This document shows, piece after piece, positions 111-4,524 of a DNA stretch of 4,524 bases. A program made the translations under genes and the position numbers. The stretch lies in IMG/VR virus record IMGVR_UViG_2778261639_000017. One strand, given 5' to 3'. The stretch's first letter is position 1. Every line of letters starts with the position of its first letter. This DNA comes from a virus (Duplodnaviria; Heunggongvirae; Uroviricota; Caudoviricetes). Below the pieces are notes generated by a model that was given only the letters and a program-made list of their open reading frames with translations, had not been told where the DNA came from and did not search any database.

Positions 111-311
111 TCAGGCAGCCTTGTTGTTCTGTTTGTCAAGTTCTCTGGCAATTATTGCCGTCGTTCGTATTGCCCATTTATCGACATATTTCCTATCTTC
201 CATTACAGGAAACATTTCTTCAGGCTTAACCATGCATTCCGATTGCAGCTTGCATCCATTACATCGCTTGAATTGTCCACGCCATTGATTTTTATCAATA
301 GTCGTAGTCAT
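111..311 (-). CDS. ral: Ral-like restriction-alleviation protein (66 aa)
   Basis: ORF of 66 codons with an ATG start at 309-311 (minus strand) and an AGGA Shine-Dalgarno about 8 nt upstream. Size, a Cys-containing RCNGCK...C motif, and position distal to N and sieB in the leftward early operon fit lambda Ral. The sequence also resembles lambda Ral as I recall it (recall not verified). Confidence 0.6.
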   Translation of the reverse strand: MTTTIDKNQWRGQFKRCNGCKLQSECMVKPEEMFPVMEDRKYVDKWAIRTTAIIARELDKQNNKAA

Positions 312-524: not shown

Positions 525-1106
525 ATGAACAACTCATGGTGGCAGGAACTAATGCATTTTTTCCTGCAAGGAATGACACTTAAACAGTTGATTCATATGC
601 TAATCATCCTGATCATATTGATTATTGTTATGCCGGTAAGCGTAAAAGAATGGATAAACCTGCATAATCCAGAAATCCTTCCTCATTACTGGATGTATTA
701 CATCCTGTTGTTTTGCGTTAGCTATGTGCTTAACGGCGTTGTTAATTCCGCTTATCACGCTGTGACTGAAAGAATTGAGGTATCCGCTGCTCAGAAGCGC
801 AAATCTAAAGAAGAAAAATATGTGCAAGATTTGTTTGATTCATTAACTCTTGGAGAAAGAGCGTATTTGGCATTCGCTGTAGCCGCTAATAACCAGCTAC
901 AAACGGAAAAGGGAGCTCATGAATCAATTTCATTGCTCAAAAAAGGACTCCTCGTTCGAAGGCCTCCTGCTGTTGGATATCCTGATACCGACCGTTTCGT
1001 TATCCCTGAAAGCTATAGACATGAGTGCTACATTAGGTTTGCCGGGAAGGCAGACAGCCTTATGGATGAACTTATCGCTCAGGATAAGCATGGCAAAAAC
1101 AAGTAA
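525..1106 (+). CDS. sieB: SieB-like superinfection-exclusion protein, predicted inner-membrane protein (193 aa; alternative start ATG 552 giving 184 aa)
   Basis: Long + strand ORF ending in TAA at 1104-1106. The N-terminal part has two strongly hydrophobic stretches (LIHMLIILIILIIVMPV and YWMYYILLFCVSYVLNGVV) typical of SieB. It lies between ral and N and converges on N, as sieB does in lambda. ATG 552 has the better Shine-Dalgarno (CAGGAA, 4-nt spacer). Confidence 0.6.
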   Translation: MNNSWWQELMHFFLQGMTLKQLIHMLIILIILIIVMPVSVKEWINLHNPEILPHYWMYYILLFCVSYVLNGVVNSAYHAVTERIEVSAAQKRKSKEEKYVQDLFDSLTLGERAYLAFAVAANNQLQTEKGAHESISLLKKGLLVRRPPAVGYPDTDRFVIPESYRHECYIRFAGKADSLMDELIAQDKHGKNK

Positions 1107-1122
1107 TTAGCAAATGAATTTA

Positions 1123-1395
1123 TCATCTCGCCGTCAGTTGTTTTGATTTCCGGTAGCCTGCCGCGTAAAGAGCTACGTTCGGAAGACAAGTTGAACCTTC
1201 ATATTTTCTGGTCAACGTTGTCAGAGTTATCACTTCTGCTCTCATTGCTGGTTTGCGCTTGCATTGCAAGACCACTCGTGAAGGGGTTGGCCTGTGTAGC
1301 TTGTCGGAGCTGATCGCCTCCTGACTTTGCAGATTTGCGCGACGAGCTCTACGGCGAGAAGCTGCGGTGCCTTTAAATTCTGTTTTTCTGGACAT
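1123..1395 (-). CDS. N: Antitermination protein N (90 aa) with an arginine-rich motif and a P22 gene-24-like C-terminus
   Basis: ATG at 1393-1395 is preceded by a strong Shine-Dalgarno (GGGAGGAA, 5-nt spacer). The N-terminal region carries an arginine-rich motif (GTAASRRRARRANLQ). The C-terminal residues ...LPNVALYAAGYRKSKQLTAR closely resemble the P22 N-like protein as I recall it. The 24-codon upstream extension in the ORF track (to 1467) is rejected because it lacks a ribosome-binding site. Confidence 0.75.
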   Translation of the reverse strand: MSRKTEFKGTAASRRRARRANLQSQEAISSDKLHRPTPSRVVLQCKRKPAMRAEVITLTTLTRKYEGSTCLPNVALYAAGYRKSKQLTAR

Positions 1396-1493
1396 GGATT
1401 CCTCCCGAATAAACTTTGGCGATGCAATCTCGAAGCTCCTCCTGAGACGGTTGCTTCGGCATTGCATCCCACAGCTTATGTGGTTGGGTGATC

Positions 1494-1539
1494 TGGCTTT
1501 TCAGCCACGTAGTCGAGAGTCGACGTTGTTTAAAGAGCC
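1494..1539 (-). promoter_or_regulatory. nutL: nutL: boxA (GGCTCTTTAAACAAC on the minus strand, + 1525-1539), spacer hairpin (GTCGA-CTC-TCGAC, + 1512-1524), boxB-like hairpin (TGGCT-GAAA-AGCCA, + 1494-1507)
   Basis: The boxA core GCTCTTTAA matches the lambdoid and rrn boxA consensus. The element lies between the predicted pL and the N start. Its architecture is mirrored at nutR on the + strand with compensatory changes in the boxB stem. Confidence 0.6.
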
Positions 1540-1831: not shown

Positions 1832-2584
1832 TTATGCTGCAAGTCTCTTAATCCAAGTCTCTCTTTTGGAGAATGGTAGAACTTGGCTTGATTCATGGAA
1901 GAGTAAGGAGAGTTGTTGCATTTGATCACCAATTGCTTCGCTGTCTATAACAACAAATCTGTTGTTATACTCCTCACTTGAAGCTTTAAGATCAATTAGT
2001 TTCCCAAGCAATGAGTAAGCACTATTCCAGCTTCCTCCGTGTTTCACGCTTGATGTAAAAACGTATTTAGGTATGTCGGTTTTTATTGTTACAGGGACGG
2101 TAATTTGATGTCCACTCAAGCCATATACGTTTTCACGAAGAGAAAGTGCGTCTCTAAGCTCTGTGTGATATAGATAATCAATAACCATACTTTCAAACTT
2201 TTCAGCTTGAACTGGCTGATACCAGTCTAACGACAAAGTTGATGCGAGTATACCAGCTCTAATTATGTTCGATGTAATCGCACCGACATCCTTTTCTGTT
2301 GCCCAAGCAATGATTTCTCCTCGAGCATTGAGTTCTGCGCCTTCTTTAAGCAGTAATTGTCGTATCTCATCAAGTCGTTTTTTGGTAAGCGAGATCCCTC
2401 TTGCCTCCATATTCATTAAGGCATCGCATCTGTCACTAACTAAATACCTACCATTGACTTCACGGATAAAGGCACCGACATGCTCTCCATCATCACAGTA
2501 AGTGAATGGACTGATAATTCTCAAGGTCTTGCCTATTGGATGGCATTCGAAACCTAGTTGTGAGATCACTGTTGAGCACATCAT
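1832..2584 (-). CDS. Hypothetical protein, 250 aa, distal gene of the two-gene cassette in the rexAB-equivalent slot; function unknown
   Basis: Long minus-strand ORF. Its ATG (2584..2582) overlaps the TGA stop of the upstream gene in an ATGA arrangement, indicating translational coupling. No transmembrane-like segment, P-loop or other motif I can recognise. Not RexB-like (RexB is a small multi-pass membrane protein). Confidence 0.8.
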   Translation of the reverse strand: MMCSTVISQLGFECHPIGKTLRIISPFTYCDDGEHVGAFIREVNGRYLVSDRCDALMNMEARGISLTKKRLDEIRQLLLKEGAELNARGEIIAWATEKDVGAITSNIIRAGILASTLSLDWYQPVQAEKFESMVIDYLYHTELRDALSLRENVYGLSGHQITVPVTIKTDIPKYVFTSSVKHGGSWNSAYSLLGKLIDLKASSEEYNNRFVVIDSEAIGDQMQQLSLLFHESSQVLPFSKRETWIKRLAA

Positions 2585-3138
2585 ATTCCAAACCCCATTT
2601 GCCCCGACTCATCTTCAAGCGGTAAAGGTACTCTCCCAGAGTAAGTTATGTTCAGATGTTTACAGAAGTAATTCCAATACCCTACCAGGTCATCTGGGTT
2701 TATGTCATCTTCGATTGGAAACGCTATTCTATCACTATAGTATCCAGCTTCTTCATAGTATACATGGTAGTGAGCACCGTAAATGATATCTTGGTACTTC
2801 GGATGATCGACCTTGTAACTATTCGTGTGTTTGTCAAAGTGATAGGTATCTACCGCGAAAACCCTCTTGTTATGATAGAAAGCAATAATATTTATTTTAG
2901 GGTAAGAAATCGGGTCATCAGGTTCTGAATCCTGATCTGGTTTCCATTTCAGTTCAAACTTTAGCCCTTGTATAGGTATACAATCCTCATCCAAGGGGAT
3001 GATATGAGCTTGTAGCCACATATCAGAGCGACTTGGTTTCTGTTTCCATTTAACGCCAGAAAAGTTAACTATTTTTTTACAATAAAGTACTTTATCAACT
3101 TCTACTTGGCTTGGCTGATAATCATCTATTTTTGCCAA
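2581..3138 (-). CDS. Hypothetical protein, 185 aa, proximal gene of the two-gene cassette immediately downstream of cI; function unknown
   Basis: Minus-strand ORF bounded by an in-frame TAA two codons upstream. The only start consistent with full length is TTG at 3138..3136, with AGGGCGG about 6 nt upstream; the next in-frame ATG is at codon 40. The product is acidic and aromatic-rich (many D, E, Y, H) with no hydrophobic segments. It starts 39 bp after the cI stop. Confidence 0.7.
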   Translation of the reverse strand: MAKIDDYQPSQVEVDKVLYCKKIVNFSGVKWKQKPSRSDMWLQAHIIPLDEDCIPIQGLKFELKWKPDQDSEPDDPISYPKINIIAFYHNKRVFAVDTYHFDKHTNSYKVDHPKYQDIIYGAHYHVYYEEAGYYSDRIAFPIEDDINPDDLVGYWNYFCKHLNITYSGRVPLPLEDESGQMGFGI

Positions 3139-3177: not shown

Positions 3178-3831
3178 TCACCCAAACGTCTCTTCAGGCC
3201 ATTGGCTGGCGATAACTTTCCCCACAACGGAACAACTCTCATTGCATGGGATCATTGGGTATTGTGGGTTTAGTGGCTGTAGAAACACCTGACCGCTATC
3301 CCTGATCAGTTTCTTGAAGGTAAATTCATCACCACCAAGTCTGGCTATGCAGAAATCGCCGGGCTCAACAGCTTGCTCAGGGTCAACCAGAATTAACATC
3401 CCGTCAGGAAAGCTGGGTTTGGAACCTGTTGGTGCGGTCATTGAGTTACCTTCAACCTCAAGCCAGAATGCAGAGTCACTGGCTTTTTTGGTTGTGCTTA
3501 CCAATCTCTCCGCATCGCCTTTGGTAAAGGTTCTGAGTTCTGGAGAGAACATCCCAGCCTGAACATGAGAAAAAACAGGGTACTCATATTGTTTTTTAAC
3601 TGGGGCCGATGAGTATTCGCCAACAGGTGAAAATGTCCCGTCGTGGTTGAATGATATGTTATCAATACCAAGGTATTTAAACACCACACCAATATCACTA
3701 AGAGATGGATGACGAGATCCGCGCAACCAGTGTCCAATCCCACCCTGCGTCATACCTAGCTCTTCGGCTAACTTCTCTTGAGTTATGCCGAGCTCTTTCA
3801 TTCTGGATCTAGCCAGTTCATACCATTTCAT
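3178..3831 (-). CDS. cI: CI-type prophage repressor: XRE-family HTH N-terminal domain plus lambda-CI-type S24/LexA-like autocleavage C-terminal domain
   Basis: The C-terminal ~135 residues ([16 protein letters not shown]...SQWPEETFG) match lambda CI as I recall it at all but one position, including the Ala-Gly cleavage site (VQAGMF), the catalytic Ser (GNSMTAP) and Lys (FKKLIRD). The N-terminal domain ([38 protein letters not shown]...) is an unrelated HTH. Start chosen at ATG 3829-3831, which has AAGGA 7 nt upstream. Alternative starts are ATG 3835-3837 and ATG 3871-3873 (which would be leaderless-like, as in lambda PRM); TTG at 3879 is the track's limit. Confidence 0.9.
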
Positions 3832-3873
3832 TTTCATGTCCTTATTATTACGCTTTGTACTGGAACCATCCAT

Positions 3874-3946
3874 GCACAATGTGTATTTTTACTTGTATTC
3901 TTAAAGTACATATTGTATTTTTATTCGTGTTTACTATGGAGGGCAT
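3874..3946. promoter_or_regulatory. Divergent cI/cro control region (OR with PRM and PR). Candidate PR: -35 TTGTAT 3893-3898, -10 TATTTT 3916-3921, operator 12-mer TAAAGTACATAT 3902-3913 in the spacer. cro Shine-Dalgarno GGAGGG at 3938-3943
   Basis: Seen directly: an AT-rich intergenic region between the divergent repressor and cro genes, with recurring TGTA/TACA inverted motifs (for example the 17-mer TGTATTCTTAAAGTACA at 3894-3910, half-sites matching 6 of 8). The 12-mer is shared with the pL region in the same promoter-relative position. Confidence 0.6.
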
Positions 3947-4162
3947 ATGAGCAACCTACGAAAATATCGAGAGTCACTGAATATCTCTCAAACAACACTT
4001 GCTAAGGCAGTTGGATGCACACAGGGAGCTATCGGACATTGGGAATCTGGTCGTCGCTTCCCAGACCTTAAAACATGCCGTGCTCTTGTTGCATGCCTAA
4101 ACAAGTTAGGCGCAAAAGTCAGTCTTGATGACGTGTTCCCGCCGGAACATAAAGCCGCTTAA
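3947..4162 (+). CDS. cro: Cro-like HTH regulator (71 aa)
   Basis: ATG at 3947 is preceded by a strong Shine-Dalgarno (GGAGGG). The product has an XRE-type helix-turn-helix (ISQTTLAKAVGCTQGAIGHWESG). It is divergent from cI across the operator region. Stop TAA at 4160-4162. Confidence 0.85.
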   Translation: MSNLRKYRESLNISQTTLAKAVGCTQGAIGHWESGRRFPDLKTCRALVACLNKLGAKVSLDDVFPPEHKAA

Positions 4163-4172
4163 TAAGCGGATC

Positions 4173-4218
4173 CGCTCTTTGTAACAACGGACATTCGTCC
4201 TACGTCGCTGAAAAGCGA
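4173..4218 (+). promoter_or_regulatory. nutR: nutR: boxA (CGCTCTTTGTAACAAC, 4173-4188), spacer hairpin (GGAC-ATTC-GTCC, 4189-4200), boxB-like hairpin (TCGCT-GAAA-AGCGA, 4205-4218)
   Basis: Position-for-position parallel to nutL on the opposite strand (boxA, small hairpin, TACGT, then a 5-bp stem with GAAA loop). The boxB stems differ by base-pair-preserving changes (GGCU/AGCC versus CGCU/AGCG). Located just downstream of cro, as in lambdoid phages. Confidence 0.6.
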
Positions 4219-4303: not shown

Positions 4304-4450
4304 ATGGAAAGAACAAGTTACAGCAAACTATCACAGCGTGACGTTGATCGCGCAGAAACAGATTTACTTATCAATCTGTCAGCTATTACCCAGCGCGGTC
4401 TGGCAAAGATGATTGGCTGTCATGAATCGAAGATAAGCAGAACGGACTGA
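4304..4450 (+). CDS. cII: CII-like HTH activator, apparently truncated (48 aa) by an in-frame TGA
   Basis: Hand translation gives MERTSYSKLSQRDVDRAETDLLINLSAITQRGLAKMIGCHESKISRTD then stop. The HTH segment aligns with lambda CII (...LLNKIAMLGTEKTAEAVGVDKSQISRWKRDW...) as I recall it. Lambda CII is 97 aa. The frame stays open beyond the TGA to the window edge. Confidence 0.4.
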   Translation: MERTSYSKLSQRDVDRAETDLLINLSAITQRGLAKMIGCHESKISRTD

Positions 4451-4524
4451 ACCGCCCCGGGTTTCCTGGAGAGTGTTTTATCTGTGAACTCAGGCTGCCA
4501 GATCATCGTTTCCGATGGAAGCAT

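Follow-up and report, generated by a model that had tools for sequence, protein, structure and literature searches.

The two sites described here, at 1494-1539 on the minus strand and at 4173-4218 on the plus strand of the window (the whole stretch of DNA that was analysed, 4,524 bases long), are best explained as the nutL and nutR of a VT2-Sakai-type lambdoid prophage, with tetraloop boxB hairpins and two matched classes of N protein and boxB loop. From sequence comparison, we put the probability of this reading at about 0.85.

Gene context of the two sites

The gene content of the window indicates the immunity and early-regulation region of a lambdoid prophage. Its layout is that of VT2-Sakai, in which the promoters are annotated, and its closest phage records are those of Escherichia phages ev207 and ev017 (97% coverage, 99.2-99.3% identity). 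The features run as follows.

111-311, minus strand: ral
525-1106, plus strand: sieB
1123-1395, minus strand: N gene, 90 aa, starting MSRKTEFKG, recognised by Pfam and by identity to the VT2-Sakai N
1396-1493, minus strand: N leader, 98 nt, from nutL to the N ribosome-binding site
1494-1539, minus strand: nutL, boxA through the end of boxB
1828-1807, minus strand: terminator
1832-2584 and 2581-3138, minus strand: two overlapping genes in the cI-pL interval
3178-3879, minus strand: cI
3947-4162, plus strand: cro, which precedes nutR in the pR transcript
4173-4218, plus strand: nutR, whole site
4304-4450, plus strand: cII, the next gene after nutR, truncated by the IS629 end after codon 48
4450-4524: IS629 end, matching the IS629 terminus in phage Stx2a_WGPS6

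nutL lies between pL and N, about 98 nt upstream of the N start codon, and nutR lies between cro and cII, 11 nt past the cro stop codon, which is the placement of nut sites in lambdoid phages. Indeed, identical sequences are marked 'putative N-utilization leftward' and 'rightward' in the VT2-Sakai GenBank record (AP000422), which further puts pL with its operators ahead of nutL and, just past nutR, a putative Rho-dependent terminator. The N protein belongs to the Pfam family N_peptide (PF25694, 3.4e-32), so that the N of a lambdoid nut system is encoded beside the sites, and it is 100% identical to the N of VT2-Sakai, of the Stx1-converting phage, of phage 1717 and of others. Its 90-aa start is the same in the VT2-Sakai record, with a Shine-Dalgarno sequence (GGGAGG) 5 nt upstream. 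The initial annotation had named the two sites nutL and nutR, and the N family, the identity of N to that of VT2-Sakai and the VT2-Sakai annotation of the same sequences all support these names. The arginine-rich arm of N and its linker occupy residues 1-33, coded by 1297-1395, with the arm sequence KGTAASRRRARRA.

The N leader folds as one long hairpin (-39.3 kcal/mol, z = -4.2, none of 200 shuffles being as stable), whose arms are the inverted repeat I12. By its location it is reminiscent of the N leader that RNase III processes in lambda.

Other features of the window concern the neighbouring genes. cII has 48 codons in the window against 98-99 aa in intact homologues, and the last 75 bases (4450-4524) give thousands of extra matches in E. 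coli genomes; in view of the stop at 48 codons and of the IS629 match, the prophage cII appears to be interrupted by an IS element. At 1807-1828 on the minus strand, a strong intrinsic terminator (AACCCGGCCTCAGCGCCGGGTT followed by TTCTTT) closes the cI operon before the pL region, and the homologous position in VT2-Sakai is annotated as the terminator of the pRM transcript. A 21-nt inverted repeat (1584-1604, AATAGTACGATATGTACTTTA, and 3902-3922, TAAAGTACATATTGTATTTTT; 86% complementary) has one arm upstream of nutL and the other in the cI-cro intergenic region, and it probably contains the oL/oR operator sequences shared in this immunity type. The two overlapping genes between cI and pL occupy the slot of rexAB in lambda. 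The gene at 1832-2584 has a DUF1828 domain and matches the PADLOC candidate defence protein PDC-M24B (6e-10), and the gene at 2581-3138 has a weak match to PDC-M24A (5e-4), with DUF6978 below threshold. They may form a prophage defence pair that is co-expressed with cI.

Structure and conservation of the nut sites

Both sites are composed of a boxA, a spacer hairpin, a UACG linker and a boxB hairpin. nutL reads GGCUCUUUAAACAACG-UCGACUCUCGAC-UACG-UGGCU-GAAA-AGCCA (by parts, GGCUCUUUAAACAAC G UCGA CUC UCGA C UACG UGGCU GAAA AGCCA) and nutR reads CGCUCUUUGUAACAACG-GACAUUCGUCC-UACG-UCGCU-GAAA-AGCGA (by parts, CGCUCUUUGUAACAAC GGAC AUUC GUCC UACG UCGCU GAAA AGCGA).

1525-1539, minus strand: nutL boxA with its 3' extension, GGCUCUUUAAACAAC
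1512-1524, minus strand: nutL spacer hairpin, GUCGA-CUC-UCGAC
1508-1511, minus strand: nutL UACG linker between the hairpins
1494-1507, minus strand: nutL boxB, UGGCU-GAAA-AGCCA, loop at 1499-1502
4173-4180, plus strand: nutR boxA
4189-4200, plus strand: nutR spacer hairpin, GGAC-AUUC-GUCC
4201-4204, plus strand: nutR UACG
4205-4218, plus strand: nutR boxB, UCGCU-GAAA-AGCGA, loop at 4210-4213

The three-part architecture that had been described at both sites is borne out together with its coordinates, all four described elements being correct, and it is also found at the annotated nut sites of 933W, whose record carries a nutL and a nutR built alike, and at the H-19B nutR that has served in experiments. 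In the window, the composite pattern GCTCTTT..TACGTNGCTGAAAAGCNA has two matches, at 1494-1538 (minus strand) and 4174-4218 (plus strand), with 0.00 expected from 200 shuffles, and TACGTNGCTGAAAAGCNA with up to two mismatches finds the same two (0.01 expected). The nut sites are also the top inverted repeat in the window (I1). A search of Rfam at permissive thresholds gave no nut-site family and only chance-level matches (E of at least 0.15).

Folded alone, the boxB hairpins have a 5-bp stem and a 4-nt loop, with energies of -7.1 kcal/mol in nutL and -6.5 kcal/mol in nutR, and no register of the window boxB gives a 5-nt loop with a paired stem. The GAAA loops fit the canonical GNRA tetraloop, with a Watson-Crick closing pair. 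Among 80 loci whose N is at least 98% identical to that of the window, nutL is conserved in 76, and the loop is GAAA in every copy that was found (76/76 for nutL and 74/74 for nutR).

The nut sites of relatives were collected from four sources, namely these 80 IMG/VR loci, 116 loci with the common nutR spacer, 77 loci picked by the N body alone, and Enterobacterales genomes from a whole-genome pattern scan. The scan gave mostly chance matches in unrelated phyla (with 16 bases specified and 2 x 596 Gb scanned, we estimate that about 280 would arise at random), and its Enterobacterales matches alone were used, several of them with two divergent sites 3-4 kb apart. The resulting 24 distinct nut sites came from Escherichia, Salmonella, Klebsiella, Pantoea, Mixta, Citrobacter, Kluyvera and Yokenella, and a smaller alignment of 16 sequences was also made. 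Since MAFFT put the gaps due to loop length inside the 3' arm of boxB, the register was fixed by hand and the loops were padded with N. The share of cells that pair is 99.6% in the alignment of 24 sites, as compared with 69% for shuffled sequences and 19-45% for slid registers, the last control being the safeguard against the bias toward the proposed structure that a hand-set register brings into such counts. Compensatory changes are seen in 8 of the 10 pairs and the covariation score was reached by none of 500 shuffles, the aligned sites being related and the independent events far fewer than the cells.

Both hairpins in the nut sites are strongly supported by this comparison, and boxB is a GNRA-type stem-loop with compensatory changes. 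The boxB stems seen were UGGCU, UCGCU, AGGCU, CGGCU, UAGCU, UGGCC, GCGCU and GCUCC. Between the two sites of the window, the covariation of boxB that had first been pointed out comes down to a single pair with full compensation (G-C at nutL, C-G at nutR), and the relatives strengthen it. The nutL spacer hairpin has compensatory changes at 4 of its 5 pairs across the family; under the same N its stem is constant and its loop is CUC, ACAC, ACUC or AUC. Five unrelated spacer stems (GUCGA/UCGAC, GGAC/GUCC, GGCC/GGCC, GGUGA/UCACC and GAUUC/GAAUC) occupy the same slot between ACAAC/ACAAU and UACG. The UACG linker is invariant (24/24 distinct aligned sites), and ACAAC/ACAAU is kept in nearly all 24, Yokenella having CAAAC.

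With GGCUCUUUA in nutL and CGCUCUUUG in nutR, both sites have, 5' of boxB, a boxA that fits the NusB/S10 consensus. The window boxA, GCUCUUUA, is rrn-type by comparison with the rrn boxA UGCUCUUUA and the lambda boxA CGCUCUUA (PMC2724277), and that of nutL is closer to rrn-type UGCUCUUUA(ACAA) than to the lambda boxA. This near-perfect rrn-type boxA of the window nutL differs from what is seen in nutL of the 933W/HK97 type (L199, 3615-3681; L117), which has no recognisable boxA. There, the slot CGCUCUUU..ACAACG reads GGCGGUGAAUAUACAACG in the 933W nutL and GGCGGUGAUAUACAACG in the HK97 nutL, and ACAACG, the spacer hairpin, UACG and boxB are retained.

Loop length and N arm length

N proteins of the family were classed by how many residues precede the conserved HRPT motif, which gave 177 distinct N neighbourhoods after deduplication. 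nutL was accepted where the spacer hairpin lies directly 5' of UACG, and this sets aside a later leader hairpin, CGACC-GGAGUU-AGUCG.

33 residues before HRPT: 30 distinct arms, 4-nt loop, 119 neighbourhoods with at least one nut site
40 residues before HRPT: 9 distinct arms, 5-nt loop, 57 neighbourhoods with at least one nut site

In one further neighbourhood of the 33-residue class, no nut site was detected. The rule that joins arm length to loop length has 0 exceptions in the 177 neighbourhoods, a count that is partly inherited and does not stand for 177 independent trials, because independent class switches are few (one clean swap, between the loci L107 and L112, and perhaps one or two more). 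It also holds in the two samples that were unselected for loop or arm, one picked through the nutR spacer and the other through the N body alone. The 33-residue class has an arm of the form ..RRR[AE]RRA.LQ.. and GAAA or GCAA loops, closed by a U-A pair (C-G in the nutL of L116), and the 40-residue class has the arm ..RRRERLKAKALANGVLAREE.. and 5-nt loops of the GACAA type. The class of the loop is the same at nutL and nutR of every phage and changes with N.

The clean swap carries much of this argument. The DNA of L107 and L112 is about 98% identical over two stretches (pL to the N end, cro to cII), save for three patches: the boxB of nutL, codons ~6-32 of N, where there is also a 21-nt indel, and the loop of the nutR boxB (GACAAGG vs GAAAAG). 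At the sequence level, the pair is a natural cassette swap of the arm and both boxB sites, and it supports matched recognition classes of N arm and boxB loop. The initial annotation had suggested that the recognition mode of this N may differ from that of lambda, and the comparison, through the tracking of arm and loop and through the cassette swap, points the same way.

It might nevertheless be argued that loop length is functionally neutral, that both N classes read any GNRA-like fold, and that the association reflects linkage and descent. The lambda N peptide binds a GNRA-tetraloop version of boxB, P22 N accepts many GNRA-like loops, and both proteins reportedly tolerate several of them, so that loop length might matter less for binding than the association suggests. 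Moreover, some phages (L100/L139, L167) carry GAAA at one of their nut sites and GCAA at the other, which indicates that some loop positions are free, and few independent switch events are documented. However, the rule is without exception in 177 neighbourhoods spread over several genera, and L107 and L112 changed three separate patches together in otherwise ~98% identical DNA. The nutL boxB is about 200 nt from the N arm codons and the distance to nutR is several kb, and over such distances linkage alone can hardly account for the joint change. In P22, the looped-out C of boxB contacts peptide side chains (PMC12550061, PMC11480772), which also argues against neutrality. On balance, we consider a neutral loop unlikely.

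The closing pairs are seemingly under looser rules in the pentaloop class. In L107, L131, L174 and relatives (Salmonella-type phages), nutL has GCUC-C-GUCAA-C-GAGC, in which a C-C mismatch closes the loop, and nutR has UCGCU-GACAA-GGCGA, with a U-G closing pair. In L230 (Yokenella regensburgei, ~6820-6885), a nutR of the tetraloop type is directly preceded, on the 5' side of its boxA, by an extra lambda-like hairpin with a pentaloop, GCGCU-GAAAA-AGCGC, which may represent a second boxB of another class or a recombination remnant.

Alternative folding and other roles of the sites

RNAfold returns the boxB hairpins as first drawn when these are folded in isolation, but it does not return the two-hairpin form as the minimum of the whole site. 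At both sites the minimum has boxA paired to the 3' half of boxB, with the spacer hairpin enclosed, at -14.1 against -12.0 kcal/mol for the two-hairpin form in nutL and -16.5 against -11.7 kcal/mol in nutR. The functional or regulatory state might then be one in which boxA (NGCU.UUU) pairs across the spacer hairpin with boxB, at its closing U, its loop and its 3' arm, a fold that would need to be opened or prevented by N or Nus factors. The first base of boxA (G in nutL, C in nutR) fits the boxB pair that differs between the sites, so that the alternative pairing is kept in both, and the title of Neely and Friedman 2000 ('alternative NUT RNA structures') suggests that such an idea exists for H-19B. 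Against this, across 11 distinct boxA/boxB combinations the alternative pairing holds in 83% of cells vs 81% in shuffles, and its sole informative pair is broken in 5 of the 11, whereas the local boxB helix pairs at 100% in the same 11 sequences and none of 500 shuffles is as high. In addition, nutL of the HK97 and 933W type has no recognisable boxA, and the local boxB hairpin would form first during transcription. We keep the alternative fold as a minor and non-exclusive rival, which is quite improbable as the functional state. A three-way covariation of the first boxA base with the boxB stem pair was considered as well and rejected, as it is not conserved in the 11 distinct sites.

It is very improbable that the nutR element is primarily part of the Rho-dependent terminator tR1, as a Rho loading site, and not an antitermination signal. 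In H-19B, Rho binds the nutR spacer, and nutR and tR1 overlap (PMC3526286); the terminator annotated in VT2-Sakai just downstream of nutR fits with this. However, a role in tR1 is compatible with nut function, and as the primary role it leaves unexplained both the near-identical element at nutL and the co-variation of loop and N arm.

Hardly credible is the view that N binds at the spacer hairpin instead of the GAAA hairpin: although the spacer hairpin is conserved in position, its covariation is as strong as that of boxB and N plus NusA protect it as well as boxB in the H-19B nutR footprint (PMC3526286), it cannot be the specificity element, because one N serves unrelated spacers (GUCGA-CUC-UCGAC in nutL, GGAC-AUUC-GUCC in nutR), its loop differs in length and sequence among loci with an unchanged N, an identical nutR spacer hairpin serves both N classes, and only the 3' hairpin changes with the N arm. 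As judged from this comparison, boxB is the specificity element.

Proposed mechanism and significance

In the preferred reading, that of VT2-Sakai-type nut sites with matched N and loop classes, nutL and nutR would act as RNA in the pL and pR transcripts. By analogy with lambda and H-19B, the single-stranded, rrn-like boxA (GCUCUUUA..ACAAC) would recruit NusB/S10. The interval between boxA and boxB, made of the spacer hairpin and UACG, is the likely contact zone of NusA, which binds at this interval in work on lambda and H-19B (PMC2724277; PMC3526286), and at nutR that of Rho too. boxB, with its 5-bp stem and GNRA tetraloop, is the predicted partner of the N-terminal arm of the 90-aa N. From boxB, the bound N would loop over to RNA polymerase together with NusA and let the enzyme pass the terminators that follow N and cro.

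The superfamily of H-19B, HK97 and Sakai would comprise two matched classes, a 33-residue arm with a 4-nt GNRA loop and a 40-residue arm with a 5-nt loop in which one base may be looped out as in P22. As the window N belongs to the 33-residue/tetraloop class, the GNRA fold that it reads should be unmodified and free of an extruded base. In lambda, the extruded base is reportedly needed for recognition of the N-boxB complex by NusA. Without a looped-out base, the Sakai class would lack both the peptide contact seen in P22 and this NusA contact of lambda.

A further idea, which we put forward tentatively and at somewhat less than even odds, is that the Sakai-type N/nut pair forms a distinct, orthogonal class, which would read an unmodified tetraloop, be switchable by indels and insulate the phage. 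The contact made by the extra base would be either absent or supplied by the spacer hairpin and UACG, and a one-base indel in the loop with a 7-residue indel in the arm would switch a phage from one class to the other. If true, orthogonal classes would insulate co-resident Stx prophages from each other's N, and this would bear on whether one induced prophage can drive the early transcription of another, and so toxin production. The tetraloop class is common and is carried by the Stx2 phage of O157:H7 Sakai; Sakai-type N and nutL (at least 80% query cover) are found in 759 of 5,426 complete E. coli genomes, and the 933W/H-19B type in 414. N-boxB serves widely as a tethering tool and is a textbook case of RNA recognition by a peptide, and the three-patch swap offers a ready design for testing a joint change of specificity in an arginine-rich arm and an RNA loop.

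Comparison with known systems

The closest experimental relative is H-19B, a Shiga-toxin phage like 933W, with a nutR system that the Sen laboratory works with. N- and Nus-dependent read-through of terminators has been shown for it (PMC3526286, PMC4499122), and we rebuilt its nutR from the antisense oligos RS662-665 (supplement of PMC3526286). The nut sites of H-19B, 933W and HK97 have the same order as those of the window, with boxA, ACAAC/ACAAU, a structured spacer hairpin, UACG and a 5-bp boxB, and in both the first base of the spacer hairpin is the G right after ACAAC/ACAAU. The H-19B and 933W nutR are even identical to the window nutR in the spacer GGACAUUCGUCC, in UACG and in the boxB stem UCGCU/AGCGA. 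They differ in the loop, which is GAAA (4 nt) in the window and GACAA (5 nt) in H-19B and 933W; the GACAA pentaloop of the H-19B/933W/HK97 boxB is replaced by GAAA at both window sites. The N proteins are homologous, with the same Pfam family, the HRPT motif and the C-terminal LP.VA.YAAGYRKSKQLTAR, but the window N has 90 aa and a 33-residue arm, against 127 aa and a 40-residue arm (..RRRERLKAKALANGVLAREE..) in H-19B, 933W and HK97, and the tblastn identity between the two types is about 37%. At nutL, the window has a good rrn-like boxA, which 933W and HK97 lack. The extra spacer hairpin, which had seemed a departure from lambda, is thus already known in the H-19B family, whose studied members carry GACAA loops.

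The lambda boxB is a GNRNA pentaloop (GAAAA/GAAGA) with one extruded base (PMC12027372), as the initial annotation had it. Lambda and the window share the 5-bp stem, the U-A closing pair and the GNRA-type fold, as well as an arginine-rich N-terminal arm of N and a boxA 5' of boxB (PMC2724277, PMC12027372). The window has a spacer hairpin, which is absent from lambda, and a boxA of the rrn type in place of the lambda CGCUCUUA, and the window boxB is without the extra base of the lambda-type five-nucleotide loop.

HK97 and 933W, of the sister class to the window sites, have as nutL boxB exactly the P22 sequence, GCGCUGACAAAGCGC (PDB 1A4T; PMC11480772). In the complex of P22 N (gp24) with boxB, a C is looped out of a GNRA-like fold (PMC12550061, PMC11480772), and GACAA minus this C is GAAA, the loop of the window (PMC12550061). 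With a 4-nt loop, the contact of the looped-out C with the peptide is impossible for the window boxB. A PDB sequence search with the whole N gave no match, and a search with the N arm gave only the N peptide of phage 21 (1NYB), weakly (E = 0.14), with 12 of 20 residues identical over N residues 6-25 (ESKGTAKSRYKARRAELIAE aligned with EFKGTAASRRRARRANLQSQ); this is the only solved structure with a sequence match to the window N arm. The phage 21 boxB is a CUAACC hexaloop that mimics the GNRA fold, and the solved boxB complexes all have 5- or 6-nt loops that imitate this fold (PMC12550061), whereas the window has a true GNRA tetraloop.

In the literature within reach, no description of a true-tetraloop boxB with a matched shorter arm was found. 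To conclude, the nut sites and their three-part architecture are already known from the H-19B family and from public annotation (VT2-Sakai and 933W). What is new, as far as this literature goes, is the combination of a tetraloop boxB with an N arm that is 7 residues shorter, a variant of a known nut system.
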